A DNA stretch of 64,000 nt from a virus, in the IMG/VR virus record IMGVR_UViG_3300020417_001527, positions 1 through 64,000 of that record. One strand, 5' to 3'. The notes beneath the pieces were generated by a model. It worked only from the letters and a program-made list of their open reading frames with translations, had not been told where the DNA came from and did no database searches. This document shows positions 5,504 through 46,252 of the stretch, in pieces. How positions within the stretch are numbered: the stretch's first letter is position 1; each line of letters begins with the position of its first letter. Position numbers and translations under genes: made by a program.

Positions 5504-7670
5504 TGGAACCTACATAGAAGATCGCAGTACTGTCACTCAGCGAGTGATGGAGCAGTACAGCAAAGGCCGACAAAAAGGCCTACAAGATATTGTGATTGAT
5601 CGTGATTATAATCGTAAAACTTCACTAGCACTTGTGATGTGTCCAGAGTGGGATCCAGGTTTCCCGCACTACAGCATTGCCAAATTGGCTGGAGTGGCCA
5701 AGTCAGCAGGTTATAGAACCAAAGCATATGATCTAAATGTTGAAGCATATCATAATTGGGAAACCAACGACGAATGGGGTTTGGAATGGCAACCGTGGGA
5801 CGGTCCAAGAGATTGGCATTGGTTAGGAGAACAGTACTGGAAAGATTTACATGAATTTGTGAAACCTGTGTTGGATCTAGCAATAGATGACATCTGCAAA
5901 TTCAAACCTGACTTTGTTGGGTTCAGTTTATACTATTGCAACAAAGAACCCACAGACTACATGATCAAAGAAATTAAAAAACGCAGACCTGATACACAGA
6001 TTATTATAGGTGGTCCACAAACACACTATTCTTGGTTTAAGCCAGAACCATGGTATGAAATTGTTGTGCAAGGCGAAGGCGAACAGGCAATACTGAATAT
6101 TCTTAACGCACAGGAAATGAAAACAGGGTTTACATTTTCAGAACAGAAAGACAAATCAAAAATAATTAGGCAGGATGAATCTGTTAGATTTTCATTGGAC
6201 AATCTGCCATTTCCTGACTATTCAGACATGCAGTTTGAAAAATACAGATTTGGAGATGGTGCTCTGTGTGCCATATCAAGAGGTTGTGTTGCCAAATGCA
6301 CATTCTGTGAAGAAACACACTATTACAAATACAGACAGCGTACCGCAGTAAGCACACTAGATGAAGTACGACACATGTATCACACCTATGGCTCTCGTGT
6401 GTTTTATTTTGTTGATAGTTTAGTAAATGGTAATTTAAAAGAACTTCGAGCGTTTGTGGAAGGCGTTAAAGCAGAAGGCATGGGCGACATCAAATGGTCA
6501 GGCTATTGTCGACATGATGGGCGTATGGATTTAGAATACATGCAGGCACTCAAAGATGGCGGTTGCGAAGTGCTTAACTATGGAACTGAATCAGGCTCAG
6601 AAAGTGTGCTACTGGCAATGGACAAAAAAGTTACACTTCCAGAAATGGAGCAAAATTTTATTGATGGACACAAAGTAGGCATCAAATCAATGACCAATTG
6701 GATTGTGGGTTTTCCAAATGAAACACCCAAAGACCTTGAAGATACATTTACGCTGTGCTGGAGAGTAAGACATCATGGTTTATATCAGATGAGTCAAGGC
6801 ACAGGATTTAATGTGGGTGTGGATACCATCGTAGGACAGGACATGCGAAAGTATGGATTGTTTCCTTTCTATTATTACGGACATTGGATGAAAGCAGATC
6901 AAACAGCAAGTATTGTACACAAGTTGATCAAAATGAAAACATTCTCTATGTTCACTGATATAATTGCAAGTAATTTATATCCGTCAGAAGGATATTATGG
7001 CATTGGAGAAGGTGGTGTACCTCATACTCCTAGAAGACGCAATCTAGCAGAACGTCATTACACCATAGAATTCAATGACTGGCATCTACAAAAAGAAATT
7101 GAATACGACTATGCTGATTTTGATTACAACATCATTAAACCAGGTATAAGTAACTTTGCAGACAGCCTTGTGAATGAAATATGGCCTTTCCTAAGAATAT
7201 GTTGGCGTGCCAGAGGCGGATACAAACTTAACCTCAAATTTGTCAAGGAATGGGAATACGAAGAGTGGGGAGACAGAAATGCGGCTCCACTGGATGCAAA
7301 CTATGATTTTGAAATTGATGATGACGGAAATTGGGAAGCATACTTTTGGTGGGATTATCAACAGGACCAAGTTGGTTTTGAATGGGTAGATGAACCAATT
7401 GGCAATGGACCTGAGTCACATATTTACAAAATAAATCATTTGCAGAATGATGTGTATCAAAATGTTAATTTTCATCAAGAGGTATCCAGCTCGGTTGTGC
7501 GAGCTCGTAGGCTGGCATGGAAAGGACAAGACTATTACAAAGAACGTGATCCATATAAAGCGTTTGATAAAATAGAATGGATGAATGATAAAAATATATT
7601 TGCAAAATGGAGAACACATGATTTCAGTTTCAAGTATCAATGGAAAGGCTCAGGCAAGTGGACAAACTAG
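5493..7670 (+). CDS. Cobalamin (B12)-binding radical SAM protein, class B methyltransferase-like
   Basis: N-terminal B12-binding motifs (VGFSLY, IIIGGPQ, QGEGE), SRGCVAKCTFC, YGTESGS, IVGFPNET. Confidence 0.88.
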   Translation: MSNDGTYIEDRSTVTQRVMEQYSKGRQKGLQDIVIDRDYNRKTSLALVMCPEWDPGFPHYSIAKLAGVAKSAGYRTKAYDLNVEAYHNWETNDEWGLEWQPWDGPRDWHWLGEQYWKDLHEFVKPVLDLAIDDICKFKPDFVGFSLYYCNKEPTDYMIKEIKKRRPDTQIIIGGPQTHYSWFKPEPWYEIVVQGEGEQAILNILNAQEMKTGFTFSEQKDKSKIIRQDESVRFSLDNLPFPDYSDMQFEKYRFGDGALCAISRGCVAKCTFCEETHYYKYRQRTAVSTLDEVRHMYHTYGSRVFYFVDSLVNGNLKELRAFVEGVKAEGMGDIKWSGYCRHDGRMDLEYMQALKDGGCEVLNYGTESGSESVLLAMDKKVTLPEMEQNFIDGHKVGIKSMTNWIVGFPNETPKDLEDTFTLCWRVRHHGLYQMSQGTGFNVGVDTIVGQDMRKYGLFPFYYYGHWMKADQTASIVHKLIKMKTFSMFTDIIASNLYPSEGYYGIGEGGVPHTPRRRNLAERHYTIEFNDWHLQKEIEYDYADFDYNIIKPGISNFADSLVNEIWPFLRICWRARGGYKLNLKFVKEWEYEEWGDRNAAPLDANYDFEIDDDGNWEAYFWWDYQQDQVGFEWVDEPIGNGPESHIYKINHLQNDVYQNVNFHQEVSSSVVRARRLAWKGQDYYKERDPYKAFDKIEWMNDKNIFAKWRTHDFSFKYQWKGSGKWTN

Positions 7671-8650
7671 TTAAGATTGTACAAGCAGGTGATCCATTTG
7701 TAAACATAACCTGGCAGGTCAGCAATCTGTGTAACTTTCGCTGTACCTATTGCAACGAGTCTAATTGGTCAGGCACCAATTTAAATCTAGATGTTGAATC
7801 TGTGAAACGTGGACTTACCAAATTGATTGACTATGAACTTGCAAGAGGCTATACCAGACTGAAAGTGTTTTTCTCTGGTGGCGAACCAGGTTATTGGAAG
7901 CCACTCACAAAGATAATGGATCATATACTTGCATCTGGTATGTCAGAAGTAAAGTTTGCAGTAAACACAAATCTATCCAACAAGTTAGCATGGTGGGAAA
8001 AGAATGTGCATTACTTTGATGATGTGGTTGCAAGTTATCATCCAGAGTTTGTAGATTCTGATCACTATTTGAAAGTGTACAAGTTTTTATCTGACAAAGT
8101 CAATTATCTATGTGGGCGTATGATGATGCATGAACCCACGTGGGACCAAGTGATAGACTTTAGCAAAAGAATAAAACAAGAAATGAAAGATGATAACTGG
8201 CGTATCGAGTATGTGCCTATTTTTGAAGAACTGTCACACACAACACGCCCTTACAACTACAAGAATCCTGAACACAAAAAGTTTTTAGAAACCACAAACT
8301 TGGAACAGGATATAAAATTTGGAGTGCCAGCCAAAGCAGAAGGCATGGCAAGTTTAGAAGTGTATGCAGATGGCACAGAACAACCAATCAACTGTAATAG
8401 AATCGTTGCAGAAAACAAAAACTTTTTTAAAGGTTGGAAATGCATGATACCAATGGAAAGTATTTTTATCAACTGTGAAGGACACATTGATATGGGAAGC
8501 TGTGGTGTAATGCCACGTGTGGGCAACCTATACGATCCGGAGTTGACATTAGAATTACCTGATTCAATCATATGTCCCAAGTCGCATTGTCATTGTGGCA
8601 CAGACATTTACATTACAAAATACAGCAAAGGTACACCAGAATATGCCTAA
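7640..8650 (+). CDS. Radical SAM protein with C-terminal twitch/SPASM-like module
   Basis: CNFRCTYC, FSGGEP, C-terminal FKGWKC...SCG...CPKSHCHCGTD; alternative GTG start at 7658. Confidence 0.9.
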   Translation: MERLRQVDKLVKIVQAGDPFVNITWQVSNLCNFRCTYCNESNWSGTNLNLDVESVKRGLTKLIDYELARGYTRLKVFFSGGEPGYWKPLTKIMDHILASGMSEVKFAVNTNLSNKLAWWEKNVHYFDDVVASYHPEFVDSDHYLKVYKFLSDKVNYLCGRMMMHEPTWDQVIDFSKRIKQEMKDDNWRIEYVPIFEELSHTTRPYNYKNPEHKKFLETTNLEQDIKFGVPAKAEGMASLEVYADGTEQPINCNRIVAENKNFFKGWKCMIPMESIFINCEGHIDMGSCGVMPRVGNLYDPELTLELPDSIICPKSHCHCGTDIYITKYSKGTPEYA

Positions 8651-9953
8651 GAGAATAAAAAGACACATGAATCCAGACACCTACTGTATTTTGCCTTTCA
8701 ATCATTTGAGCATTGATCCTGTGGGGCATGTAAGACCCTGCTGTAACTATGACATACACAGCAAAACATTTAGAGAATCAGGCGTACCCATGGACAAAGT
8801 GCAAGACGTGGATAATCCAATGGATAACCTTTGGCACAAACAGTTGAGAGAAGATATCAAAGATGGCAAAAGACATTCGCTGTGCAAACGCTGTTGGACA
8901 GTAGAAGACAATGGTGGTTTTTCATACAGACAAAACTACAATCAATGGTTCATGGATCCCAAGTCAGACATGTACATGGGCTACACAGAACCACCCACTG
9001 AAATAAAAATAGAATATGTTGAAATGACTCTGGGTAACAAATGTAACATTCAATGTCGTATGTGCAATCCATGGTCATCCAGCATGTGGCAAGAAGATAT
9101 GGTGCATCATCCACAACTGGATTTTTGGCGTACCAAGTATGATAATCTAACATTTGATTGGTATGAATCAGATCGTTTTGAAAAAATACTGACAGATATA
9201 CTGCCCACAGTAAAACACATCAACTTTTTAGGTGGAGAGCCTCTGTTCAATGAAAAATATTATCAAATCATGGAACGCATAATGCAATCAGGCAGAGCAG
9301 AAGAAATCAGCATACAGTTTAACACCAACGGATTGGCCATACAAGACAAAAGCAAAGAGTCTTGGAATCGATTAAAAAAGGTAGGATTCAATTTGTCATG
9401 TGATGGTATTGGTGCAGTAAACGAATATGTTCGTTGGCCCGGCAAATGGAGCAAGTGGGAACGCAACATGAATAAACTCAAAACATGGCGTAAAGAATTA
9501 GGTAAAATTAATTGGGAAAATATACAAGAAAGCAAATGGACATTTCAATTTCATTCAACCATGAGCAGTTTAACTTGGTTAAACTTTCCAGACCTATTGA
9601 GATACACAGCAAAATTTGATGGACATTCAGGTCTGTTTCCTTTTGCAATTCAAGTTACACAACCAGAATACATGGATCCTATACACATGCCAGATGAAAT
9701 AAAAGAAAAAGGATACAAAGCCATAACTGAAACAATAGCAGAAGTAAAAACTCAAGCAAAACCTTGGCATTGGGTTGATTCAAAAAACATTGAAGGATTA
9801 ATGAATCATATCATGAATACACCTCGCGATGAATCACTGTGGGAACAAATGATTTTTGAATCCAACAAATTGGATCGTATACGCAACTCTTGTATACTGG
9901 ACATTGTACCTGAATTTAAAGACTATTGGCATGACGCAAACGTTCCACTCTAA
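8643..9953 (+). CDS. Twitch-domain radical SAM protein
   Basis: CILPF...PCC...CKRC, CNIQCRMC, FLGGEP, LDRIR...VPEF tail. Confidence 0.9.
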   Translation: MPKRIKRHMNPDTYCILPFNHLSIDPVGHVRPCCNYDIHSKTFRESGVPMDKVQDVDNPMDNLWHKQLREDIKDGKRHSLCKRCWTVEDNGGFSYRQNYNQWFMDPKSDMYMGYTEPPTEIKIEYVEMTLGNKCNIQCRMCNPWSSSMWQEDMVHHPQLDFWRTKYDNLTFDWYESDRFEKILTDILPTVKHINFLGGEPLFNEKYYQIMERIMQSGRAEEISIQFNTNGLAIQDKSKESWNRLKKVGFNLSCDGIGAVNEYVRWPGKWSKWERNMNKLKTWRKELGKINWENIQESKWTFQFHSTMSSLTWLNFPDLLRYTAKFDGHSGLFPFAIQVTQPEYMDPIHMPDEIKEKGYKAITETIAEVKTQAKPWHWVDSKNIEGLMNHIMNTPRDESLWEQMIFESNKLDRIRNSCILDIVPEFKDYWHDANVPL

Positions 9954-11139
9954 AATAAATCTACTGTCAGACGATCGTTATTATGATCTATTTGCAAACT
10001 TAAATCAATGGGGTATAAACCATGATGAGATCTGTGCAATCATTGGTGATTCACCTGTGCAAGAATATATCATAAAGAGTCATCCGTATTGGTTACCAGG
10101 GCTGAATGGTTCAGCCACATATGAAACTGATCCACAAACAGAATACTTCAAAAACTATGCTGACTCCATTGAAACACATTGGGACAGCATACGTGCTGGC
10201 GATACTCGACTGGTATTTCTGTTACAGGATTGGTGGACCACCATGAACGAACAAGAAAAAGCACACTCACCCAACATGGAAGGTGAATTCACTTCATTGG
10301 ATTTATACAATACTCTGTATCACAGTTTGAAAGCACGTGATTTACTTGCAGGTTCAAGATTTGTATGTGGCTCCAGCATACAAGGAGTTGTACAACACAC
10401 AGACTGGCCCATATATGATTACAATGAACCTTTCTTACGCTGGTCCATGCTTAAAAATTATCCTGTAGAAACTGCCACCAGTTTTCGTAAACATTTTTTG
10501 TGGTTGAACAGACGTTTACGCACACATCGAGTGTTGGCTCTGCATGAAGCATATAAACATCAACTGTTACAGCATTGCACATACACCGCACACGAATGGT
10601 CTGAACTGGATGAAACCTTCTACGAAGATACCATAAGAGCATACACAGACGAAGTTGACATGTCATTTGCTGAGTTCAATGGTAGACAATACATTGGTGA
10701 TTCATATGATGTATCCACTGATGTACAGTATGTGCCTGAAGCTCTAGCAACTCGGAATGCATCTGCAGACTGCTTTGCAGAAATTGTAACAGAATTTAAT
10801 TACAGCGATAATAAAGTTTATTTGACAGAAAAAATTGCTCGTGCTATTGTTAATAAAAAACCTTTTTTAATCATTGGAGATCGAAACAGTTTGAAAGAAT
10901 TACAACGCATGGGTTTTAAAACATTTAATAACTTTTGGGGTGAAAGTTATGACACACAGCCTGGCATATATAATAGAATAAAGAAAGTAATGTATCAACT
11001 TCAAAATATTGTACAAACCATAGATTTAAATCAACCGTACACAGATGAAATGCACAGCGTTCTAGAACACAACTATCGTCATTTCTTTGGTGCATTCACA
11101 GACCAACAGAATAAAAAACTTGAAAGTATATTTGCATGA
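9931..11139 (+). CDS. Uncharacterised protein, possibly a GT-B/GT10-like glycosyltransferase (TEK motif family)
   Basis: FLWLNRR.RTHR and IVTE...YLTEKI...KPFLIIG...GFKTF; paralog of 19794..20969. Confidence 0.5.
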   Translation: MTQTFHSKINLLSDDRYYDLFANLNQWGINHDEICAIIGDSPVQEYIIKSHPYWLPGLNGSATYETDPQTEYFKNYADSIETHWDSIRAGDTRLVFLLQDWWTTMNEQEKAHSPNMEGEFTSLDLYNTLYHSLKARDLLAGSRFVCGSSIQGVVQHTDWPIYDYNEPFLRWSMLKNYPVETATSFRKHFLWLNRRLRTHRVLALHEAYKHQLLQHCTYTAHEWSELDETFYEDTIRAYTDEVDMSFAEFNGRQYIGDSYDVSTDVQYVPEALATRNASADCFAEIVTEFNYSDNKVYLTEKIARAIVNKKPFLIIGDRNSLKELQRMGFKTFNNFWGESYDTQPGIYNRIKKVMYQLQNIVQTIDLNQPYTDEMHSVLEHNYRHFFGAFTDQQNKKLESIFA

Positions 11140-12656
11140 CACCACAAGAAGTAATTGACAATGCCAATGATATGAGCATTTGGGATAATGCTGTATGGGT
11201 AAACACACAGCAAGGTACATTCTTTGTACCTATATGGCGTAACGGCAATACTAAATTTCTGTACATTGCAGAACAGTTTGGTTATACTCTAGAAAACAAT
11301 TATGATGTCACAGGTCTAATAGGATATGCCTTTGTGAGACAGCCTGAAAAAAGAATTGTTGGCCAAATAAAAAGAGCCATGGTTAATCAGGACTGGTCGT
11401 TTGAGGATGCTGTAAACAATGCAAAGGGCAATAAGCATGAACTGGATGTACATTTGCTCTCACAACACAGTTTTTTAGATCAATATCCGTTACGCTATTG
11501 CATTGATTTAGATGATATACGCAAAACAGGACATGAACATATAGATAGTGTACTAGATGAATTTATACATGATGATCAAAGACCTTCGCAAGTAATAGAT
11601 GAAACAGTTAATGAACTCATAACACCACACATAATAGATCTATATCATGAGGATCGTATGCCTTCTGTGGGCATTGTGGGTGTGGGCAACATAGGCTCTG
11701 TGTTAGCAGATGTTCTAACACAAAAAAATGTTGTTGTCAAGAAGTTTGATATTCATGAACAGTACGACACACTTGAAGATGTTCGTGCATGTGATGTCAT
11801 ATGGATATGTGTGGACACTCCTACCACTCAGGATTATGGTGATTATGATTATACCAATCTAAATTCTGCACTTAATTATTTTGAAAATAAAGTTATTATC
11901 GTTGGTTGCACAGTATCACCTGGCACAATTCGTACTCTGCACACAAAAAATTGTGTATTAATCTACATGCCTTTTTTGATTTCACAGGGCAATGTTGCTG
12001 ATGGATTGATAGAACCTGACTGCTGGTTCATTGGTGGAGTGTACAATCGTTCAGTGAATGCACTGGTATCCAGATTAAGCAATGCACCAAAGCATTGGGG
12101 CACTTGGCAAGAAGCAGAAATGGCCAAGGTGCTGTACAACTGTTGGATCATACAAAAGATAAACTTTGCCAATTGGGCATCTGATCTAGCATATGAAGTT
12201 GTGGGTAATGCAGATGCTCAAAAAGTAATGCGTTGGCTTGGAGAGTCGAACAAACTTATAACCAGCGATGCATACATGCGACCAGGTTGGGGTGATGGTG
12301 GACCTTGTCACCCACGTGATAATTTAATGATGAGTTACATTTCAGGTCAAAAATTAGGTTATGATCCAGCCTGGAATCAACACACAACCAGACTGGCACA
12401 AGCCAAACTGATGGCAAAACGTGCAGTAGCAACAGGATTGCCTGTTATCATATTGGGCAAAAGTTACAAAGCCGGAACTGATAGCACAGAAGGTTCATAC
12501 AGTTTGGTGGTTGCAGAACAAATTGAGCTACAGGGTGGAACAGTTTATTTTGAAGACCACTTGACAAGTGGCGATTATTGTTATATACTAGCACATAACG
12601 ATTTCTATGGACACGAGCCGTCTGAAAGAAGCACAGTAATTAATCCATGGGTATAA
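11136..12656 (+). CDS. Fusion of a sulfotransferase-2-like N-terminal domain with a UDP-glucose/GDP-mannose dehydrogenase family domain
   Basis: C-terminal part: GIVGVGNIG, ICVDTP, TVSPGT, EAEMAK..YN, GWGDGGPCHPRD, LGKSYK. N-terminal part: VPIWRNGNT, AFVRQPEKR, DVHLLSQ. Confidence 0.8.
   Translation: MTPQEVIDNANDMSIWDNAVWVNTQQGTFFVPIWRNGNTKFLYIAEQFGYTLENNYDVTGLIGYAFVRQPEKRIVGQIKRAMVNQDWSFEDAVNNAKGNKHELDVHLLSQHSFLDQYPLRYCIDLDDIRKTGHEHIDSVLDEFIHDDQRPSQVIDETVNELITPHIIDLYHEDRMPSVGIVGVGNIGSVLADVLTQKNVVVKKFDIHEQYDTLEDVRACDVIWICVDTPTTQDYGDYDYTNLNSALNYFENKVIIVGCTVSPGTIRTLHTKNCVLIYMPFLISQGNVADGLIEPDCWFIGGVYNRSVNALVSRLSNAPKHWGTWQEAEMAKVLYNCWIIQKINFANWASDLAYEVVGNADAQKVMRWLGESNKLITSDAYMRPGWGDGGPCHPRDNLMMSYISGQKLGYDPAWNQHTTRLAQAKLMAKRAVATGLPVIILGKSYKAGTDSTEGSYSLVVAEQIELQGGTVYFEDHLTSGDYCYILAHNDFYGHEPSERSTVINPWV
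12561..12589 (+). promoter_or_regulatory. Sigma70-type promoter inside the 3' end of a CDS
   Basis: TTGACA (12561-66), 17 nt spacer, TATACT (12584-89); about 58 nt upstream of ATG 12647. Confidence 0.55.
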
Positions 12657-13822
12657 TAATTAACTCAGTCAATAACTGCAGAGTTTGTAAATCACCGGTT
12701 AAAATTGTGGCAAACTTTGGCGACATATACGTCAATGACTTTCCAGCACGATCAGGTGAGCATCGAGGTCAAGCACCCATGGTGCTACAGCAATGCACCG
12801 AATGTGATCTAGTACAAATGAAAGATACAGTAGATCCTCAAATACTGTATGGTGATCATTACTGGTATGAATCAGGTTTAAATCCTAAACTAAAACAAAA
12901 CCTATTGGACATTGCAGGATATGTCAACGAGCATACCTCACCAGGTGATGTGGTATTGGATATAGGTGCCAATGACGGTACGCTGTTATCAGGCATAGAA
13001 ACAGATAGATTTCGCATAGGCTGTGAACCTGCTTCTAATCTATGGGATAAACTTGCTCCACATTGTGATGAAATGATCAAAACCATGTTCTCACATCTAC
13101 AAATAGAATCAGACATAGCAATACACAAAGCCTCAGCTATCACAGCCATTGGCATGTTTTATGATATGGATGATCCCAATGAATTTATTCATAGTGTAGA
13201 AAAGTGTTTGGCAGACGATGGTATTTTTATTGCACAATTAATGACACTGGCTCCTATGCTGGAAATGAATGATTTAGGCAATGTGTGTCACGAACATTTA
13301 GAATATTATTCATACAAAAGTTTAGTGGCTCTGTATGAACGCAATGGATTAGAAATATTTGATTTATACTTTAATGACATACAGGGTGGATCATATCAAA
13401 TATGGGCAAGAAAATATCGCACAGGTTCTATAGAACACACAGAAGATATATCATCCATACACGACTTTTATGATTCAGTTATAACTCGTGGCATGCAACT
13501 ACGAGCCGAACTAACACAATTTACAAATGCTGGTAAAAAAGTATATGTATACGGTGCTTCAACAAAAGGTAACACAATGTTACAGTTATGGGACATAGGC
13601 AACTACTTTGAAGGAGCGGCCGAAATACACCCGGATAAGATAGGTAGATTCACTGTAGGTACAAACATTCCTATTGTGAGTGAACAAGAAGCACGAGAAA
13701 ATGCTGATGTGTTCTTTGTGCCAAATTTTGGATTTCGAGATATGTTCGTCAAAAAAGAACGTGAATGGTTAGAAAAGGGTGGCCGTATGATATTTGCCAT
13801 GCCCCGGGTTGAAGTGATATGA
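12647..13822 (+). CDS. NDP-hexose C-methyltransferase (C3-methyltransferase family)
   Basis: Zn ligands CRVC...CTEC, LDIGANDG, CHEHLEYYS, YGASTKGNT. Confidence 0.85.
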   Translation: MGIIINSVNNCRVCKSPVKIVANFGDIYVNDFPARSGEHRGQAPMVLQQCTECDLVQMKDTVDPQILYGDHYWYESGLNPKLKQNLLDIAGYVNEHTSPGDVVLDIGANDGTLLSGIETDRFRIGCEPASNLWDKLAPHCDEMIKTMFSHLQIESDIAIHKASAITAIGMFYDMDDPNEFIHSVEKCLADDGIFIAQLMTLAPMLEMNDLGNVCHEHLEYYSYKSLVALYERNGLEIFDLYFNDIQGGSYQIWARKYRTGSIEHTEDISSIHDFYDSVITRGMQLRAELTQFTNAGKKVYVYGASTKGNTMLQLWDIGNYFEGAAEIHPDKIGRFTVGTNIPIVSEQEARENADVFFVPNFGFRDMFVKKEREWLEKGGRMIFAMPRVEVI

Positions 13823-19804: not shown

Positions 19805-20969
19805 CATAATAATTGAAAACATCGTGGATCGTCCATATGATCCTGTTTATTTTGTAAATCCAGGACACCATGGTGAATGGTGTGGTGTAGAATATGTGTT
19901 TCCCTATGACAACTTTCCTATAAATTCTGTGTATCACTCCAATTGGTTATCCACGCTGTCAGGTTTAAAATTTGTATTTCATTGGTCACAACTGCCTGTG
20001 TACACAGACATTGTGTTGTCCACAGACAGCATCAATGCTGTTAGAAATGATCCTGAATGTTTTTTATTAATTCATAATTTACATGAAGCACGAATGCATG
20101 GTATAAATGAAATAGCAGAAAAAATTCAATTATTGGGCATACCTTTACACAAATGCATCATGCTTACATCAGATCCTAATTCAGACTCTGAACTGAGAGG
20201 CGGAATACAACAGGTGTGGGTAGACAACTATTGGGAAGCTCTGTGTCGCAAACATCATAAAACATCAACAAATACCGCCATGGTGCATCCTCGGGATTAC
20301 ACTCTGGAGCATGTGGATAGAAAATTTTTATCACTGAATAGAAATGTAAAAATACATAGAATGCAATGGATGTATGCCATGCGTAATGAAATTTTTGATA
20401 TTACACCACAAGGACATGTTTCATTTCATTTGCCTGAATGGAAAAAAGAAGATTATTATCAACATTGCATGGACAATTGGCGTAATCACAATGACGGCAT
20501 ACCTGATCAAAACTTTACCGTAATGAAACTGGATCCACTGGATCCTGTCACACAACCATGGACCATATCCAACTCTGATCAATTGACAGAATTTTATCAA
20601 CGCTCATACTTTTCTGTTGTAACAGAATCGGATCATCATTTGCCTTTTGTTACAGAAAAAACATTCAAAACCATTGCATGTATGCACCCTTTTGTTATCA
20701 TTGGCAATCCACAAATGAATTCAATACTGAGAGACAAAGGCTATCACACATTTGAAGATTACTTTGAAAGAGATTCGGTGCAAACACAACGTGACATGAT
20801 TGAATTGTGTGAATGGATAAACAGTAAAGACATGCAATTTTTTCAGAAAAAGACTGAAAAGGTTCTTGACAAGTTAACAGATAATTATTATAATTATATA
20901 AATGGTTCTGTGGATTGGAACCATATCATGGGAAAAATAATCAATGCAACAACCAGCACCACCACCTGA
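19794..20969 (+). CDS. Uncharacterised TEK-motif (GT10-like) protein; paralog of 9931..11139
   Basis: FLSLNRN.KIHR, SVVTES...VTEKTFK...HPFVIIG...GYHTF; start uncertain (TTG 19794 or GTG 19746). Confidence 0.5.
   Translation: MSYSIIIENIVDRPYDPVYFVNPGHHGEWCGVEYVFPYDNFPINSVYHSNWLSTLSGLKFVFHWSQLPVYTDIVLSTDSINAVRNDPECFLLIHNLHEARMHGINEIAEKIQLLGIPLHKCIMLTSDPNSDSELRGGIQQVWVDNYWEALCRKHHKTSTNTAMVHPRDYTLEHVDRKFLSLNRNVKIHRMQWMYAMRNEIFDITPQGHVSFHLPEWKKEDYYQHCMDNWRNHNDGIPDQNFTVMKLDPLDPVTQPWTISNSDQLTEFYQRSYFSVVTESDHHLPFVTEKTFKTIACMHPFVIIGNPQMNSILRDKGYHTFEDYFERDSVQTQRDMIELCEWINSKDMQFFQKKTEKVLDKLTDNYYNYINGSVDWNHIMGKIINATTSTTT
20866..20894 (+). promoter_or_regulatory. Perfect sigma70 consensus promoter inside the 3' end of a CDS
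   Basis: TTGACA (20866-71), 17 nt spacer, TATAAT (20889-94); about 50 nt upstream of ATG 20944. Confidence 0.7.
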
Positions 20970-21348
20970 CTTTCATATCCATCCCAATGGATTTGATTCA
21001 ACTCGACCCACAGCACAAATGATGGGTAGATATCAACCGTGGCATGACGGCCACACAGCTCTGTTTAAACGCATCATCGAAACAGAAGCAGATCAAGTGT
21101 TTATCATGATTAGACACATGCCACAGGATGAAAACAATCCGGCTATGCCTCATGAATCAATTCCCTTGATCAAGGAACGATTATCAGCAGAGGGTTATGA
21201 AGAAAACAAACATTACATGATTGCGATTGTGCCAAACATAGTAAACATCAGCTGGGGTCGTGATGTGGGCTATTCTACCACACAACATGATCTAGGCGAA
21301 GAAATACATTCAATAAGTGCAACAAAGATAAGAAATGGGACAGTTTAG
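20944..21348 (+). CDS. Cytidylyltransferase-like (HxGH) nucleotidyltransferase
   Basis: GRYQPWHDGH and ISATKIR signature motifs. Confidence 0.8.
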   Translation: MQQPAPPPDFHIHPNGFDSTRPTAQMMGRYQPWHDGHTALFKRIIETEADQVFIMIRHMPQDENNPAMPHESIPLIKERLSAEGYEENKHYMIAIVPNIVNISWGRDVGYSTTQHDLGEEIHSISATKIRNGTV

Positions 21349-22022: not shown

Positions 22023-22451
22023 GTGAAAATATTAATATTTGGATTGCCTGGTTCGGGTAAAACCACACTTGCGAAACCGTTTGCTGAGTTGATTGGTGGG
22101 ATACATATAAATGCTGATGTTGTTCGTGCAAGTTATAATGATTGGGACTTCAGTGAACAGGGTAGAATACGCCAAGCACAAAGAATGAAACATTTAGCAG
22201 ATGGTGTTGTAATGGCAGGTAAAGTGGCCGTCGCAGACTTTGTGTGTCCAACAGAACGTGCAAGACAAGAGTTTAATCCAGACTTTACTGTGTGGTTGGA
22301 TACTATTAAAGAAGGCAGGTTTGAAGATACTAATGCTATGTTTGAAAAGCCTGCATATAAAGTGGACTATCATGTGGCTGAATGGTTTGAAGATACTCAT
22401 GCACAATTGGTTCCAGTCATTGAACGCTGGATGACGAGGAATAAAAAATGA
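22023..22451 (+). CDS. cysC: Adenylyl-sulfate (APS) kinase-like protein
   Basis: GLPGSGKTT P-loop, NADVVR, DFS..GR, FEKP; GTG start with upstream AAGGA. Confidence 0.75.
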   Translation: MKILIFGLPGSGKTTLAKPFAELIGGIHINADVVRASYNDWDFSEQGRIRQAQRMKHLADGVVMAGKVAVADFVCPTERARQEFNPDFTVWLDTIKEGRFEDTNAMFEKPAYKVDYHVAEWFEDTHAQLVPVIERWMTRNKK

Positions 22452-29764: not shown

Positions 29765-30026
29765 CAATGTAACATGGGGCCGTAATGCAGGTCGAATCAA
29801 CATAGAGGATCTATCCACACGTGAGTTACAGCGTGAATGTTCAAGAGCTTTGGCATCTGGAGCCATTGTGGCCACGTCTGCAAACCTAACTAAGTACAAC
29901 AAACAGGCTCCTCATAACAGTCATCTATGGTATAGAGCTGTTATAGAAGATTATGTAAAACAATACGGTGGCTTGCCAAGTCGTGCAGGTCCTGGTGTAG
30001 ATGTAAAACTGATACTGGAGGAATAA
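29757..30026 (+). CDS. Hypothetical protein
   Basis: Overlapping start and stop with both neighbours; contains IEDLSTRELQRE. Confidence 0.6.
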   Translation: MLNNVTWGRNAGRINIEDLSTRELQRECSRALASGAIVATSANLTKYNKQAPHNSHLWYRAVIEDYVKQYGGLPSRAGPGVDVKLILEE

Positions 30027-30712
30027 TGAATAGAAAAATACGCAACGCACTAGAACAGTTCTGTGTAGAAACGTTTGGTGTGAAACCAGATTACAACGCA
30101 ATGGAACCAATGGTTGATGCATTAGACCGACAGGTGTTGCACAATTATTTTGGTAACACAGGTAATTGGCGGCCTGACAATAAAAATTTCAAAGCATCAG
30201 GTGAACAGTTAATAGAAAAAGTAAACGCACTTAGACCCGATTCTGTGTTGGACATAGGTTGTGGTTATAATCTACTCAAAGGTAAAATTAAAAATCTATG
30301 GGGTATAGATCCATACAACACAGAAGCTGATGAAGTTATTGATTTGATGGATATAAGATTAACCGGCACCAATGATGTGGTGTTGTGTTTAGGATCAATA
30401 AACTTTGGCGATCAAACAGAAATTGAACGCAAGGTTGCAAAAGCAGTCAGTTTGTGTAAGCCTGGCGGTTCGTTGTTTTGGAGAGTAAATCCTGGACTTA
30501 CACACAGCAGAGCTGGTGCTGAATGGGTTGACTTTTTTGAATGGAATGAAGATAAGCTACGAGAGTTAGCAATCAAAAATGATTGTGTATGCGTTGATGT
30601 ACAAGAAGATCGTTGGCGAGACGACGGAGAAGGTTTGAGATATTATGCTCAATGGAATCGGAACAGAAATACAGAAGCAGAATCCGTTTCATTACAGAAT
30701 ATGGGAAGGTAA
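30026..30712 (+). CDS. Class I SAM-dependent methyltransferase (paralog 1 of 4)
   Basis: VLDIGCGYN, GIDP, LCLGSINFG, KPGG; GGAGG SD. Confidence 0.85.
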   Translation: MNRKIRNALEQFCVETFGVKPDYNAMEPMVDALDRQVLHNYFGNTGNWRPDNKNFKASGEQLIEKVNALRPDSVLDIGCGYNLLKGKIKNLWGIDPYNTEADEVIDLMDIRLTGTNDVVLCLGSINFGDQTEIERKVAKAVSLCKPGGSLFWRVNPGLTHSRAGAEWVDFFEWNEDKLRELAIKNDCVCVDVQEDRWRDDGEGLRYYAQWNRNRNTEAESVSLQNMGR

Positions 30713-32027: not shown

Positions 32028-32353
32028 AAAAGGTTATCTGTGAAGCAATGAAAGGCAAAGAAATTGATATTGATATCAATTTTAAGATGTGGCCTTGCTG
32101 TATGTATCAAAATATATTTGCAGAATTTGGCAAGACTGGAGATCCATACATAGACTCTCTGCCGGCAGATTGGAATGATACACGAGTACACGGCATTGAC
32201 AAAATATTAAGGCACTATGCATACACAGAACATTTCAATGACAAGAGTTGGACAGATGAAAAGAAGTGTTCTCCTGTGTGCTATGAAAAATGTGCAGAAG
32301 GCGGTGAAATGCATTTGAATCATGCACCGTTAAATTTAGATGGCAAAGATTAG
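32024..32353 (+). CDS. Stand-alone twitch/SPASM-like Fe-S domain; split partner of 30645..32027
   Basis: C...WPCC...CSPVCYEKC; ATGA overlap; paralog of 63177..63470. Confidence 0.75.
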   Translation: MKKVICEAMKGKEIDIDINFKMWPCCMYQNIFAEFGKTGDPYIDSLPADWNDTRVHGIDKILRHYAYTEHFNDKSWTDEKKCSPVCYEKCAEGGEMHLNHAPLNLDGKD

Positions 32354-33221
32354 ATTAATGAATGTGCCTAAAAGGCAACTGGGAAAATTTAGATTTGTAG
32401 AAAAGAAAGATATCACAGATCGTTTTGTGTTGCCACAGTGGTGGCGACTGCCCGAATCAGTGAGATGGTCACACACAGCTCGTAACTATCAAAAAAGTTA
32501 TGATGCATGGACGGCCGAGTTTACATTTGATACTCGCAAATACACAGGACAATGGTTGGTAGACTACATTCAGCAACGTGATCCCAATGGGCTTGTGCTG
32601 GATGTTGGTTGTGGATCTAATCCTTACAAAGGTAAGATTAAAAATTTAGTAGGTATGGAGCCAGGCGATTGGGGCAGTAAAGATTTACAATGGGATATTA
32701 TGGGTCATATATACAAGTACGTGGAAGACAACAAATGGGATTGGCTACTTGCAATAGGTCCTCTCAATCATGGTGATACAAATGAAATTACTGAAATGCT
32801 CACCACCATGCATGGTTGTCTTAAACCAGGTGGTAAACTAGTATGTTTGGTCAAGCCAGCCAATTGGGCTCATCTCAAAGTTGACCCATGGAGAGAAAAC
32901 AGAGGCTTGTGCTATCCGTGGATGAAAGAAAGTATTTACAGATTTGGTGCTCAACAAGATTTTGAACTTGAACTTGCTCCTGTGCTGGATGGCACAGATC
33001 TTGGCAAACTCACAGATGAAAAATTACAAAAACTTGCTGACATTGAACCATGGGAACACACTCTAAATGGTGCACCACCAGTGGAGACTGAAGTGCAAGA
33101 CGGAGACATGTACTCGCAATGGGAAGCGGTACAACGGGAAATAAAACGCAGGAAAGACACACCTGATGCACCCAGCGAAGTTATAAGACAGCGTTGGTTT
33201 TGGATCTGGAGGAAGTTATGA
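32340..33221 (+). CDS. Class I SAM-dependent methyltransferase (paralog 2 of 4)
   Basis: VLDVGCGSN, IGPLNHG, LKPGG, terminal RWFWIWRK. Confidence 0.85.
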   Translation: MAKIRLMNVPKRQLGKFRFVEKKDITDRFVLPQWWRLPESVRWSHTARNYQKSYDAWTAEFTFDTRKYTGQWLVDYIQQRDPNGLVLDVGCGSNPYKGKIKNLVGMEPGDWGSKDLQWDIMGHIYKYVEDNKWDWLLAIGPLNHGDTNEITEMLTTMHGCLKPGGKLVCLVKPANWAHLKVDPWRENRGLCYPWMKESIYRFGAQQDFELELAPVLDGTDLGKLTDEKLQKLADIEPWEHTLNGAPPVETEVQDGDMYSQWEAVQREIKRRKDTPDAPSEVIRQRWFWIWRKL

Positions 33222-33242
33222 TTGTGTTAAGCAGAAGGAATC

Positions 33243-33620
33243 ATGAATCAACTAGTACCAGTTAAGAAAGGAGCCTTGGTTCCATATAAAAATAAAAAAC
33301 CAACTGAAGTACAACCATTTTTACTAGTCGAAGAACGCAAAGTGTTCGAGACACGTGAAGAAATAAAAAGATACTTACCGGACATCTGTGGCCTAGCATT
33401 GGCTCGCAGTTGGCACGACAAAGCGTATATGCACAAATTAGAAACAGATATTTACAACACATTTAAGGAAGGCGGAGTAATACTGCCAGAAGATACACTA
33501 TTACAATTTGAAAAAACAAGTGGCCAGAGAGCCAAGATTACAGTATATGAGCAATCTCCTCACAGCAACTTTAAATTAAAAGTTTGCAGTTTGAGTTTGA
33601 ACATGATAGCACAAAGGTAA
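33243..33620 (+). CDS. Small protein with a nitrile-hydratase-like leader peptide (NHLP)-like segment
   Basis: LARSWHDKAYMHKLETDIYNTFKEGGVILPE matches the A(R/K)AWxDxxFxxxLxxDPxxxLxExGxxLP pattern; AAGGA SD upstream. Confidence 0.5.
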   Translation: MNQLVPVKKGALVPYKNKKPTEVQPFLLVEERKVFETREEIKRYLPDICGLALARSWHDKAYMHKLETDIYNTFKEGGVILPEDTLLQFEKTSGQRAKITVYEQSPHSNFKLKVCSLSLNMIAQR

Positions 33621-33624
33621 AACA

Positions 33625-33795
33625 ATGTTAATTAATATATTAAAAATAGAAGCAATAGTTATAGGATTATTGATTATTTTGTATTTGATGGCATCATTGG
33701 CATACATTGGTATGGATTTAGAAATGATGTCCACAGATTATGAAATGGAGAAAATAATGGCAGAAAGGTTGGCAGTAATTGAACCAGGAAGCTAA
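33625..33795 (+). CDS. Small single-TM protein, 56 aa (not in the ORF track)
   Basis: Hand translation MLINILKIEAIVIGLLIILYLMASLAYIGMDLEMMSTDYEMEKIMAERLAVIEPGS; fills the intergenic gap. Confidence 0.6.
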   Translation: MLINILKIEAIVIGLLIILYLMASLAYIGMDLEMMSTDYEMEKIMAERLAVIEPGS

Positions 33796-34726
33796 TCTAG
33801 AACAAAGCGAACAGTATATGTCTGCTTTAAGTAGCGTAAAATCCAAGTTCGATCCAGAAGAAGTAGCTGGCTGGTCACGTGATAAAAGACTAGCACAGTT
33901 ACGTGAACACTTTTCCACTGGACATTCGGATATTATAAGAACAACATCACACACAAAAACAGGCTCAGGCTTTCCAGCCGCCGAAGTAATCAATGCAATG
34001 AATCCCGATCTGGTGCTTGATCTAGGTTGTGGATTTTCATTGTTTAAAGAACACATACAAGGGTTGATAGGTGTTGACCTACTGCCTTACGAAGGCAGAG
34101 TTGATCTTGTTATGGATTGTGATGATGCACTAGAACTGTTTCAGGACAATAGCGTAGATGCTATTCGTTGTGTAGGTCCATTCAACTTTGGCACACAAGA
34201 AGAACAGGAAAAACTCATTGGTTTGTGTTATGACAAACTTAAACCCGGAGGTGTAGTCTGTGGACATGCTCGTCCAGGACGCAAAAGCGATGCAACAGGA
34301 TTTAATTCACGTGGTATTATTCACTATCCATGGACAAGAACTGCGGTGCATGAGTTTACTGAACTGTTTGGTTGGGAACTGTGTGACCCACACCTAAGTG
34401 TGCCAGGCTGGGTGGAACAAAGCGATCACAAGTCACCCATCATCACAGAATGGACAGACCTACGACAGTTGAGCTGGCCACAGTTGAAAGACTACATGGT
34501 GCGTTTCAATCCAGACGATACACCCATTGATGATTTCAACAAATGGTTGGACAGAGAACATGACAACTCAGACATGTTTGATCCTCTGGAGTATCAAGAA
34601 GGACTCAAAGATGCACATGTTAAAGTGCAGAACGAATATTGGCGTAGATTAAAAGATGAACGATTTAACAGGCACATGCACGATGGTGTGAGACCTCGTT
34701 ATAATTGGTGGTGGAGGAAACCCTAA
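33779..34726 (+). CDS. Class I SAM-dependent methyltransferase (paralog 3 of 4)
   Basis: VLDLGCG, GVD, CVGPFNFG, LKPGG, terminal RYNWWWRK; alternative ATG at 33818. Confidence 0.85.
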   Translation: MNQEANLEQSEQYMSALSSVKSKFDPEEVAGWSRDKRLAQLREHFSTGHSDIIRTTSHTKTGSGFPAAEVINAMNPDLVLDLGCGFSLFKEHIQGLIGVDLLPYEGRVDLVMDCDDALELFQDNSVDAIRCVGPFNFGTQEEQEKLIGLCYDKLKPGGVVCGHARPGRKSDATGFNSRGIIHYPWTRTAVHEFTELFGWELCDPHLSVPGWVEQSDHKSPIITEWTDLRQLSWPQLKDYMVRFNPDDTPIDDFNKWLDREHDNSDMFDPLEYQEGLKDAHVKVQNEYWRRLKDERFNRHMHDGVRPRYNWWWRKP

Positions 34727-34947
34727 TGTACACAGTAGAATTTGAACATGACACATTTGAAATTGTGGTATTGGATGATGGTGGTTATGAAGATGATTTG
34801 CGAGTAGAAATTCAATCAGATGCAGTTTTTATTTCACAATGGAATACTGTGTTGAATGAAGAACAGAATATACGTATTTCGCCACAGATGTGGGACGAAC
34901 TGCTGTCAGCAGTTAAAAGCCCAGAAGGAGCATACATAAAAAGATGA
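34726..34947 (+). CDS. Small acidic hypothetical protein
   Basis: TAATG overlap with GGAGG SD; ATGA overlap with apt. Confidence 0.6.
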   Translation: MYTVEFEHDTFEIVVLDDGGYEDDLRVEIQSDAVFISQWNTVLNEEQNIRISPQMWDELLSAVKSPEGAYIKR

Positions 34948-35474
34948 TAAAAGATTTTATAAGAACAGTACCAAACTATCCTGTTAAAGGCGTAAATTTT
35001 TATGACTTGAACAGTTTGTTTGCAGGACCAATGTTTAAAACTGTGATTGGTTTGTTGTTGGACAAAGCCACTGCAATGAAAACACCCACACACATCATTG
35101 GTGTTGAAAGCAGAGGTTTTGTGTTAGGTTCTGCTGTAGCATATGCAATGGGTCTACCTTTTGTTATGGTACGTAAAAAAGGCGCCAAGTATCCAGGTAA
35201 ACTATTAAAAGAATCATACGAACTTGAATATGGTAAAGCAACTCTGGTGCTACAAGAAGGCCTGCTTGGACACACAGACAGATGTATCATTGTGGATGAT
35301 CTGGTTGCCACAGGCGGTTCATTGGGAGCAACAGCAAAGTTGATTGAACAAACAGGTGCAAAAGTATTGGGTGCATTAACTGTTATGGATTTGAAATACA
35401 TACGCAACAATGCAGATTTTGATTATCCAGTACACTCTATAGAAGAAGAATGGAACAATCCGCTTGAACAGTAA
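34944..35474 (+). CDS. apt: Adenine phosphoribosyltransferase
   Basis: GVNFYD, GVESRGF, VRKKG, YELEYG, IVDDLVATGGS PRPP-binding motif. Confidence 0.95.
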   Translation: MIKDFIRTVPNYPVKGVNFYDLNSLFAGPMFKTVIGLLLDKATAMKTPTHIIGVESRGFVLGSAVAYAMGLPFVMVRKKGAKYPGKLLKESYELEYGKATLVLQEGLLGHTDRCIIVDDLVATGGSLGATAKLIEQTGAKVLGALTVMDLKYIRNNADFDYPVHSIEEEWNNPLEQ

Positions 35475-36102
35475 CGGCATATTGAAACGTTTGAAAGAAC
35501 GTTTTGAACAGCAACACGAAGTACGCAAAAGATCACTTGCGTTACACAGGACACTCAGCGGAAGAAAACTGGCAGAAGAAATAGCAGAAAGCAATCCTAC
35601 GCTGGTTTTAGATCTTGGCTGTGGCAGTAACGAGTTCAAAAAGATAGTGCCAAATGTTATTGGTGTAGATGTTGCAGAGCTTCCTGAAGTAGATTTTAAA
35701 ATGAGCATACAAAATTTTCACAGACGCAAGCCTTTCAAAGAACGTACTGCTGATTGGATTCTGTGCTTTGGACCTTTCAATTATGGCGGTTCAAAATGGG
35801 CCACAGAAATTGGTGAATGTATGAGTTACTACTTGGCAGAACATGGCACCATAGTGTGTCATACTCATCCTACCAACAGTGAAATAGACTGGACAGAAGA
35901 AAACATAACTACATATGGAAAAGAATTTGGCTTTGTGACAGAAAGTGTACAGATAGGTCACACAGATATTATGACCATGTCCATGGAAGAACTGGATATT
36001 CAACAGGAAGTTGCATCACGTTCTCCTGATATTGCAATGGAATTATCGTTGGGCAAGGATCTTATAAGACCGATGGTGGTATGGCGATGGAAACACAAGT
36101 AA
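35464..36102 (+). CDS. Class I SAM-dependent methyltransferase (paralog 4 of 4)
   Basis: VLDLGCGSN, GVD, LCFGPFNYG, terminal RPMVVWRWK. Confidence 0.8.
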   Translation: MNSNGILKRLKERFEQQHEVRKRSLALHRTLSGRKLAEEIAESNPTLVLDLGCGSNEFKKIVPNVIGVDVAELPEVDFKMSIQNFHRRKPFKERTADWILCFGPFNYGGSKWATEIGECMSYYLAEHGTIVCHTHPTNSEIDWTEENITTYGKEFGFVTESVQIGHTDIMTMSMEELDIQQEVASRSPDIAMELSLGKDLIRPMVVWRWKHK

Positions 36103-44572: not shown

Positions 44573-45083
44573 TTGAAGGTGCCTCTACTATCCATTTTAC
44601 ATAACTGGCCGCATCGGGTATGCTCATGCATTTGCGTCCAGGGTGTTTGTCTTCATTGTTTTCTAGTGTGCCAAAACTGATAAGGCTAACACGTGGCACA
44701 GTTTTTTCACTCCACACACTCTGTAATGCCAGTGATTGACAGTAGCTCTGCAGAGCTTTCTTTTCCTGTTGGTATATCCACGAGCTACCTTTGGTAACTC
44801 TGTCCACAGTACTGCCAATACACACAATATGTAGTGATTTTCCTGCCGTTTCTGCCAACTTCCATACTAGTTCTAGTAGTAGTGATTGGCGAAAGTGCCA
44901 TAATGCACTATTATTAATAAAAACATCGTACTCAATGGCCTTTTTTGCTACTGCTTCCATATTCATTCTAGTTTCTAAGTCGCAACCACTGTCACGACTG
45001 ACAAAGTCAGCTTTAGGAAACACAGATGCAAGTCCTTTAGCCAATCCCTCTTTGGGATTGCCTGTGATAAAAATTGATTTCAT
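44529..45083 (-). CDS. Short-chain dehydrogenase/reductase (compact SDR)
   Basis: FITG...GLA, DVFINNS, CIGS, YQQEK (YxxxK). Confidence 0.8.
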   Translation of the reverse strand: MKSIFITGNPKEGLAKGLASVFPKADFVSRDSGCDLETRMNMEAVAKKAIEYDVFINNSALWHFRQSLLLELVWKLAETAGKSLHIVCIGSTVDRVTKGSSWIYQQEKKALQSYCQSLALQSVWSEKTVPRVSLISFGTLENNEDKHPGRKCMSIPDAASYVKWIVEAPSNVNINEISLDRIQR

Positions 45084-46252
45084 ATATAATCCTTGAATTC
45101 TGGCACAACATTAAGTATATTTTCTTTTCTGCTTTGGTCCAAAGTATGCGTGTACCTAACATACTCTGGCCAGCGATCACTCCAGTCTTCAGCCCACATA
45201 TAATCTATGGTACTGTCCAGCTTTTCAACGCTGTAATTTTCCAAACGTTCAGTGGCCAACTGTTTAAGTTCTGGTGGCAACACTCTGATGTTTAGATATT
45301 CTGGATGATTCAGTATATTCAGGTAAACAAATTTATCAAATTGTTGTACCCAATCAAACCATGTGTTTAAATGTAATATATTGTTTATCTGTACAGTGGT
45401 GTGTATTTGAACTCTCACACTTTTCATGTCTAGGAAACGTTTTAGATTTTTATCTACCAACTTCCAATTTGTAGGATAGCGTATGTAACGATTTAAATCT
45501 CCATATGCGTCTATAGAACAGTTTAGTTTAACAGTTTTAAATCGATCCCAATAATCAATCATACGCTGTGGAATGTTTGTAAGGTTGGTGTTGTATTTTA
45601 AAATAATGTTTTCATTCAGCCCACGCTCAATGAGGTAATCAAACAGTTTGTACTGAGCTGTTGCAAGTGTGGGTTCACCACCTGTGAGGTAAACTTCTTC
45701 TATTGTGTCTGCAACATCAATTAAATTTTCCCAAGTCTTAGGTTTGTTGGGCCATGTCATTGTGTCTGTGTCCAAACGCTGTAGTTCTTCTTCGGGCAGA
45801 GGATCTTCAACCATGTTCCACTCATCTATCCATTGATTACTGGCGTATGGATTACACATTCTACATTTTAGATTACACAGGTTGCCCAAACGTAGGTCAA
45901 TGTACTGTGCTTTTGGTTCTGGTGTAATATCAGAATAGTCAGAATCAGCATTGTACCAACCTTCATTCCATGATTGCCTTGCTGATTTTACTCCTGCGTC
46001 TTCTTCTCTAAAACAGCGTTCGCACATTTCAGGACGTTCTCCATTCAAAAACTGCTGACGTATTGTGGTCATTGTTTTGGAGTTCCATGCTTCACGTATG
46101 TCATGTTTGTGCAATTTGTATTTGCCACCATCTGGGTGTTCTAATCCGTTTTTGCCCGGAGTTGAATTACAACAGACACGCAGAGTGCCCGCGGCATTTG
46201 TGGCCACGTGCATCCAAGGTAACACACAGAATGTTTTGCTGGGCATGTTCAT
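45080..46252 (-). CDS. Twitch-domain radical SAM protein
   Basis: CVLPW...VCC...CERC, CNLKCRMC, LTGGEP. Confidence 0.9.
   Translation of the reverse strand: MNMPSKTFCVLPWMHVATNAAGTLRVCCNSTPGKNGLEHPDGGKYKLHKHDIREAWNSKTMTTIRQQFLNGERPEMCERCFREEDAGVKSARQSWNEGWYNADSDYSDITPEPKAQYIDLRLGNLCNLKCRMCNPYASNQWIDEWNMVEDPLPEEELQRLDTDTMTWPNKPKTWENLIDVADTIEEVYLTGGEPTLATAQYKLFDYLIERGLNENIILKYNTNLTNIPQRMIDYWDRFKTVKLNCSIDAYGDLNRYIRYPTNWKLVDKNLKRFLDMKSVRVQIHTTVQINNILHLNTWFDWVQQFDKFVYLNILNHPEYLNIRVLPPELKQLATERLENYSVEKLDSTIDYMWAEDWSDRWPEYVRYTHTLDQSRKENILNVVPEFKDYI

Follow-up and report, generated by a model that had tools for sequence, protein, structure and literature searches.

A stand-alone, coreless protein with a remote NHLP/nitrile hydratase alpha resemblance in an rSAM/methyltransferase island of a marine virus

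The DNA considered here, hereafter called the window, is a stretch of 64,000 nucleotides belonging to the IMG/VR virus record IMGVR_UViG_3300020417_001527. The record as a whole is 85,789 bp long and, according to CheckV, approximately 25% complete; its size and estimated completeness point to a large tailed phage as the source. Several studies of marine and seawater metagenomes have sampled the stretch around the gene studied here. This gene, whose product is called P0001 in the following, is flanked by four paralogous class-I-like methyltransferase genes (30026-30712, 32340-33221, 33779-34726 and 35464-36102), the products of which share 22 invariant alignment columns, including VLD-GCG. A 2OG-oxygenase/rSAM fusion, an adenine phosphoribosyltransferase and a GNAT protein are encoded close by, and many rSAM/SPASM, B12-rSAM and sugar-nucleotide enzymes belong to the island around them.

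The initial annotation had placed an open reading frame here, with a short intergenic gap and an AAGGA Shine–Dalgarno sequence of its own, and this description is borne out (table 1). Indeed, the stop codon of the upstream methyltransferase gene lies at 33219-33221, the gap that follows is 21 nt long, and AAGGA falls inside it. The translation includes LALARSWHDKAYMHKLETDIYNTFKEGGVILPEDTLLQF and the tail VYEQSPHSNFKLKVCSLSLNMIAQR, the two strings quoted in that annotation.

Table 1. Features of the P0001 locus, in window coordinates.
Feature	Position	Strand	Basis or remark
P0001 gene, 125 aa, coreless NHLP/NHase-alpha fold	33243..33620 (including stop codon)	+	ORF and translation
Shine–Dalgarno-like AAGGA	33235..33239	+	3 nt 5' of the ATG; read from the sequence
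N-terminal tail, residues 1-35, predicted unstructured	33243..33347	+	pLDDT 43-67 and 58-80 (two models)
NHLP/NHase-alpha-like domain, residues 36-125	33348..33617	+	pLDDT 90-97; structure and profile matches
Adjacent 56-aa ORF	33625..33795	+	4 nt after the P0001 stop, +1 frame

The gene is real and under purifying selection. Compared with its closest ortholog, carried by the near-twin contig L001, it shows a dN/dS of 0.17 (dS 0.92). Seventeen residues are invariant among the 16 phage-clade sequences (R38, L45, P46, I48, L53, A54, W57, D59, L66, L81, R96, Y102, E103, K111, C115, A123 and R125), and they are spread over the full length of the protein. A hint of transcription comes from a seawater RNA library, in which two contigs align without mismatch at 33219-33369 and 33462-33642; such contigs cover parts of the stretch only, the uncovered parts mean nothing, and DNA carry-over may contribute. 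A scan for promoters and terminators around the gene gave background levels.

Eight close metagenomic relatives of P0001 were recovered by a word-indexed search, and an HMM search of 1.8 billion proteins added a wider set (188 relatives at E ≤ 1e-3, 88 of them at E ≤ 1e-10, counted as representatives at 50% clustering). A maximum-likelihood tree splits 10 viral and 6 metagenomic sequences from all 36 bacterial ones with 96% SH-aLRT support. P0001 belongs to the viral branch and displays a full-length profile match, the LVP motif and the C-terminal ...L-x-L-x-M-x-A-x-R end. The family is undescribed (literature searches returned no description of it) and consists of two branches, one in uncultured marine and freshwater phages, the other in Alphaproteobacteria.

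Two parts can be distinguished in the protein (table 1). The N-terminal tail carries short conserved motifs, namely LVP (residues 4-6), Tyr15 and F/LxLV (residues 26-30). V5 and Y15 hardly vary among phage-clade sequences, and ALVP is also found at the N-terminus of bacterial members, i.e. a motif common to both branches lies within the predicted disordered tail. In the AlphaFold models, the domain that follows is built of three helices (38-58, 60-68 and 70-76) and three strands (85-92, 96-104 and 111-119), and it ends with the conserved C-terminal motif of the family, KVCSLSLNMIAQR.

The small ORF adjacent to the P0001 gene encodes one hydrophobic helix followed by an acidic tail, GMDLEMMSTDYEMEK-MA-RL. 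It is kept only in the near-twin L001 (L001:10380-10535, 51 aa) and is absent beside homologs in the other loci; we treat it as a neighbour of the P0001 gene rather than as its partner. A read-through or frameshift fusion of this ORF with P0001 was considered and dropped, given the +1 frame, the 4-nt gap and the presence of two separate ORFs in L001. The acidic tail resembles a TDIMTMSMEEL-type insert of the flanking methyltransferase paralogs.

Queried alone, P0001 matches nothing in Pfam, NCBIfam or PHROGs, nor TIGR03793 (leader_NHLP) at E ≤ 0.1. Its affinities emerge at the level of the family. Of the 30 PDB matches of a profile built from nine sequences, 28 are NHase alpha, thiocyanate hydrolase gamma or NHLP chains, a proportion that reaches 37 out of 37 with a 16-sequence profile (E values from 2e-5 to about 1, with a block at about 1e-3). 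The matches to NHase alpha and NHLP cover residues 44-90 of P0001, approximately. Among the low-ranking long matches of the search of 1.8 billion proteins (E 1e-8 to 1e-5), eight of the ten scanned contain PF02979 (NHase_alpha), and the alignment of the family with one of these proteins by hhalign gave a probability of 89.5% (E 2e-6). TIGR03793 itself is matched by all ten relatives taken from both branches, and is the best match for nine of them, at 17-30 bits and E values of 3.5e-7 to 5e-3; none reach its cut-off of 50.9 bits. A six-frame search of the 85.8-kb record with this model returned a single match (33399-33515, 11.6 bits), which falls inside the P0001 gene.

The predicted structure leads in the same direction. 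AlphaFold models were obtained from 9 sequences (pLDDT 78.6) and from 73 sequences (pLDDT 87.5, with 90-97 over residues 30-125). With both models, the two solved proteusin precursors, 8tb1 and 9cjx, ranked first and second among 48,161 chains in VIA-align (Z 5.8-6.0 over 69-75 residues, rmsd 3.1-3.6), and in the second of these searches they were the sole chains at Z ≥ 5, although Z values of 5.8-6.0 are modest taken alone. Foldseek found nothing significant in the PDB for either model; the only low-rmsd row corresponds to 8tb1, at E 0.45. The resemblance of P0001 to NHLP and NHase alpha is real but remote, and exceeds chance. The likeness that the initial annotation had drawn by eye is hence upheld by profiles, hhalign, the sub-cut-off TIGR03793 matches and the VIA-align ranking alike. 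Two of the lines of confirmation it proposed succeeded in part: the relatives do match TIGR03793 and the family profile NHase alpha, but P0001 alone does not and scores stay below the cut-offs; likewise, the modelled fold and the top ranking of proteusins in VIA-align stand, whereas Foldseek provided no significant hit.

In the published structure, the proteusin precursor is organized as a rigid NHLP domain (alpha1-alpha3, beta1 and beta2), a proline-rich linker, a flexible leader stretch and a core (PMC10858898). P0001 corresponds to the rigid NHLP domain alone, with one extra strand. Compared with the NHLP leaders of TIGR03793 (proteusin, TOMM and lanthipeptide leaders, including MprE7-TH1, 8tb1, and DprE2, 9cjx), which are of the same fold class and provide the best structural matches, it shares N-terminal helices with an A-x-x-W-x-D motif followed by short strands. 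However, it has neither the proline-rich linker, nor the LxxxxL/GG leader end, nor a core, and it adds, besides the extra strand, an N-terminal tail of roughly 35 residues. It also lies far under the TIGR03793 cut-off and has no fixed association with maturases, a protease or an exporter.

P0001 carries no core peptide. The protein ends in ...NMIAQR where the fold ends, and 80 of the 83 representatives matched up to the last profile position stop 0-3 residues later. Conservation in the family is highest in the C-terminal block (...KVCSLTLTMMAQR in phages, ...LLYLQLVMMAGR/K in bacteria), instead of the hypervariable C-termini envisaged for homologs of a precursor. Neither a GG cleavage site nor a variable core is present in P0001 or its family, in agreement with two reservations already expressed in the initial annotation, and no C39 peptidase or YcaO was found in the 85.8-kb record. 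As P0001 stops at the end of its fold and its C-terminus is the part under the strongest conservation, it is not a precursor, and the reading as a RiPP precursor was rejected on all these grounds.

Homology to NHase alpha and thiocyanate hydrolase gamma (PF02979, TIGR01323, TIGR03887) is remote and extends over the helix-helix-strand part. It raises the question of a remnant or minimal nitrile-hydratase-type metalloprotein, i.e. a truncated alpha subunit binding metal through its VCSL strand. Beyond the alignment of the family profile with NHase alpha, this would fit with the VCSLSL of the last strand, which we take to occupy the position of VC(S/T)LCSC in NHase alpha, and with a cysteine (C115) that is invariant in the phage clade. 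However, the motif in P0001 reads V-C-S-L-S-L-N and retains only the first cysteine of C-(S/T)-L-C-S-C, i.e. one of three metal-binding cysteines, and most bacterial members have Leu, Phe or Tyr at this position. Because there is a single cysteine, not kept in the bacterial branch, a hydratase-type metal site appears unlikely from the sequence. Moreover, P0001 has 125 residues versus about 200, the C-terminal half being missing. PF02979 is not matched at its cut-off, either by P0001 or by the bacterial relative P0034 (16.9 bits versus 27.2), and a Pfam scan of about 40 ORFs of the window revealed no NHase beta-subunit gene. Nothing leads us to expect hydratase activity, and we find the metalloprotein scarcely credible.

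The relation between the gene and its island was examined from both sides. On L001, the order of the island genes is kept, with 62-100% amino-acid identity. Contig L101 (IMGVR_UViG_3300033182_001206, 75.8 kb) carries orthologs of 16 island genes in conserved order, including both immediate neighbours of the P0001 gene (66% and 88% identity), but the slot between them holds two unrelated genes of about 250 codons (10816-11577 and 11549-12307) that replace the NHLP-like gene and the small ORF. The family is not matched anywhere in the 75.8 kb of L101, which represents approximately 21% of a genome, so that a copy elsewhere is possible. The slot between the methyltransferases looks like a site of cassette exchange. 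In the reverse direction, among the best 80 loci (±10 kb) of the 277 viral relatives of the methyltransferase family, an NHLP-like gene was present in the near-twin contig only, 79 of the 80 being without it. Co-folding of P0001 with the product of the upstream methyltransferase gene (32340-33221) gave a score of 0.00, obtained without control pairs, which speaks neither for nor against binding. The link of the P0001 gene to the rSAM/methyltransferase island is not conserved.

Several further observations concern these contigs. The two slot genes of L101 sit between the orthologs of window genes 32340 and 33779 (L101:9890-13254); sequence searches of the PDB with both gave no match, and the 56-aa ORF is missing from L101 together with the NHLP-like gene. 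The methyltransferase family has 277 relatives in IMG/VR, many on contigs of 100-350 kb, and is widespread in large phages; it matches Pfam methyltransferase models below their cut-offs only. The adenine phosphoribosyltransferase gene (34944-35474, + strand; NF002636, 166 bits) lies amid SAM-consuming enzymes and may serve to salvage adenine from the breakdown of 5'-deoxyadenosine or SAH; it has no ortholog in the compared part of L101.

Elsewhere among viruses, the gene is found in unrelated contexts in 15 of 16 loci, L001 being the exception. In four loci (L004, L005, L007 and L008), it is bordered by genes for a family A DNA polymerase and a helicase, with a gp32-like gene in the vicinity; it overlaps the end of a class I/II aminotransferase gene in three (L006, L009 and L012), and is directly followed by a cytidylyltransferase gene in L002. 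Other sugar-pathway families were detected in a scan of the pooled viral loci, i.e. at the level of the set and not of individual loci. In L010-L016, the gene is set among small phage ORFs, and a CxxxCxxC gene occurs in L008 and L010 only, 5-8 kb away. A tblastn search of 50,697 GenBank phage records with P0001 and its L004 homolog gave no match.

One small viral contig shows a partial link with the window: at L003:2146-3309, the NHLP-like gene comes directly after homologs of two window genes, encoding an APS-kinase-like P-loop protein (72% identity) and an unknown protein of 134 aa (61%). Their counterparts in the window (20944-21348 and 22023-22451) are located 11-12 kb upstream of the P0001 gene. 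This trio represents either an older accessory block since split by island genes, or plain shared ancestry of the phages.

In bacteria, a query of the bacterial type identified 277 loci in genomes of Alphaproteobacteria: Rhodobacteraceae (Cereibacter, Gemmobacter, Tabrizicola, Thalassovita), Puniceispirillum/SAR116-like genomes, and MAGs labelled as Pelagibacteraceae and Rickettsiales. A profile search of genome contigs with the phage-type alignment returned nothing. Eighty of the 277 loci were examined, and in 77 of these a Sel1-repeat gene comes next downstream on the same strand. It encodes about 210 aa, including a signal peptide; close reading of three loci showed that it starts only a few bases from the stop codon of the family gene or overlaps it. 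The family gene often has flagellar and chemotaxis genes beside it. FlhA is encoded within 8 kb in 46 of the 80 loci, and the neighbours also include an FlgE/F/G-type rod protein and a sigma-54 activator, both labelled from Pfam, as well as bactofilins; further labels (FliA, CheA, FlgM, FliD, MotA and RpoN) rest on the appearance of N-terminal sequences only. No homolog of the Sel1 protein was found in the window, in the rest of the record or in the viral loci.

Some bacterial loci have features of their own. A 75-aa gene follows the family member in 12 loci (within L020-L099), and in a group of nine loci three tandem bactofilin genes lie just upstream of it; L087:7968-9216 and L092:7986-8980 are examples of bacterial loci. 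The identity of one neighbour cluster (cl6) as FlhF was not confirmed in a PDB search.

Another known parallel to such a protein is the Os1348 family (NF038399), which comprises leader-only small proteins of the NHLP clan. Relatives of P0001 match it weakly (E 7e-5 to 0.08, all below the cut-off), and the P0001 family differs from it by its own N-terminal LVP, its C-terminal ...L-x-L-x-M-M-A-x-R/K end and its Sel1-repeat partner in bacteria. Within the family, P0001 differs from the bacterial branch in being viral, in having no Sel1 partner and in lying inside an rSAM/methyltransferase island.

These contexts bear directly on the proposal that P0001 stands at the heart of a RiPP-like island, as precursor, trans-acting leader or scaffold. 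Homologs without rSAM and methyltransferase neighbours, which the initial annotation had named as a finding that would refute it, do occur, in 15 of 16 viral loci and in the 80 bacterial ones; such neighbours are confined to the present lineage. A functional tie to the island is disfavoured because of the other contexts of the gene, the reverse search from the methyltransferases and the gene-less island of L101. The initial annotation is thus partly supported: its fold call holds, its island-centred role does not. Three readings nonetheless keep a connection with the island enzymes. According to the first, P0001 would be a trans-acting leader, or a docking or activator subunit, recruited in this phage lineage to bind and present, or to activate, the flanking methyltransferases and rSAMs, which would modify a separately encoded peptide or protein. 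The tight placement of the gene between four paralogous methyltransferases, kept in L001, would be consistent with this, as would the many rSAM/SPASM, B12-rSAM and 2OG enzymes of the island. In proteusins, furthermore, the structured NHLP part can be separated from the leader stretch to which the enzymes bind, and mutants pointed to a role of helices alpha1-alpha2 in contacts with the epimerase OspD (PMC10858898). However, the same island occurs in L101 without the gene, 79 of the 80 best viral loci with methyltransferase relatives have no copy, 15 other phage loci and 80 bacterial ones carry it in the absence of such enzymes, and neither a candidate core peptide nor a protease or exporter was identified. 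We therefore regard a trans-acting leader as unlikely.

The second is a recruitment restricted to this lineage, in which a coreless NHLP fold would have been enlisted as a trans docking or substrate protein for the four methyltransferases and the 2OG/rSAM enzymes. This appears quite improbable to us; if true, the island would be, at least partly, a virus-encoded pathway of protein or peptide modification with a split leader.

The third takes P0001 itself as the substrate, with either the N-terminal tail as core and the NHLP domain as a C-terminal follower, or the last residue or residues built upon and then released, as on scaffold peptides. The 35 N-terminal residues are indeed predicted to be disordered and yet contain conserved residues, all members finish with a fixed motif in which A-Q/G/T is followed by a terminal Arg/Lys, and modifying enzymes adjoin the gene. 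However, neither end is hypervariable, and the same ends are kept in members from phages and bacteria whose genes have no modifying enzymes in their vicinity. The gene-less island of L101 argues against this role as well, no protease gene was recognized near the P0001 gene, and the C39 family is absent from the record. We give this reading very little credence.

We rather propose that P0001 is a stand-alone, coreless protein of the NHLP clan, encoded by an accessory gene and acting as a protein-binding module, and not as a substrate or leader of the island. On balance, this reading seems probable, if not strongly so. Structurally, P0001 would consist of a flexible N-terminal tail of about 35 residues and of a compact domain of three helices and three strands that extends to the last residue. 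Its gene would move independently among phages, as a single accessory gene, and the protein would work by binding another protein, since a folded domain combined with a conserved N-terminal linear motif provides the kind of features that repeat proteins such as Sel1/TPR grip. Against this reading stands the position of the gene in the window and in L001, tight between four methyltransferase genes and beside the 2OG-oxygenase/rSAM fusion. SPASM-type rSAMs, whose substrates are often peptides, also abound in the island, and this leaves room for the lineage-specific recruitment considered above.

As the phage copy travels without a Sel1 partner, it may act on a host protein. A plausible target would be whatever partner the host's own homolog has in the envelope or flagellar apparatus. 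This part of the proposal is tentative and on the doubtful side. Indeed, the Sel1 partner has a signal peptide, whereas the family is without an obvious one.

In any case, the presence of the P0001 gene does not justify interpreting this marine phage island as a proteusin-like RiPP cluster. The analysis adds a viral member to an unannotated but strongly conserved family, in which the NHLP 'leader' fold is free-standing, and which is common to phages and to flagellar and envelope loci of abundant marine Alphaproteobacteria. If the phage copies do act on a host partner, they would represent a simple case in which a phage mimics an accessory protein of its host, and would provide a first hint of what the structured half of NHLP leaders does.

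Two minor observations from elsewhere in the record can be added. Several rSAM proteins of the window (1673-5503, 8595-9953 and 45080-46252) have their SPASM domain N-terminal to the rSAM core, for example with SPASM at residues 23-94 and Radical_SAM at 137-300, which is the opposite of the usual order. The remainder of the record (L018, positions 64001-84000), with features at 4487-5989, 7588-8991, 9381-10538 and 12719-13699, encodes a TctA-family transporter subunit, a DUF2201 metallopeptidase/VWA protein beside an AAA ATPase, a 5'-3' exonuclease, another rSAM protein and a second UDP-glucose-dehydrogenase-like protein.
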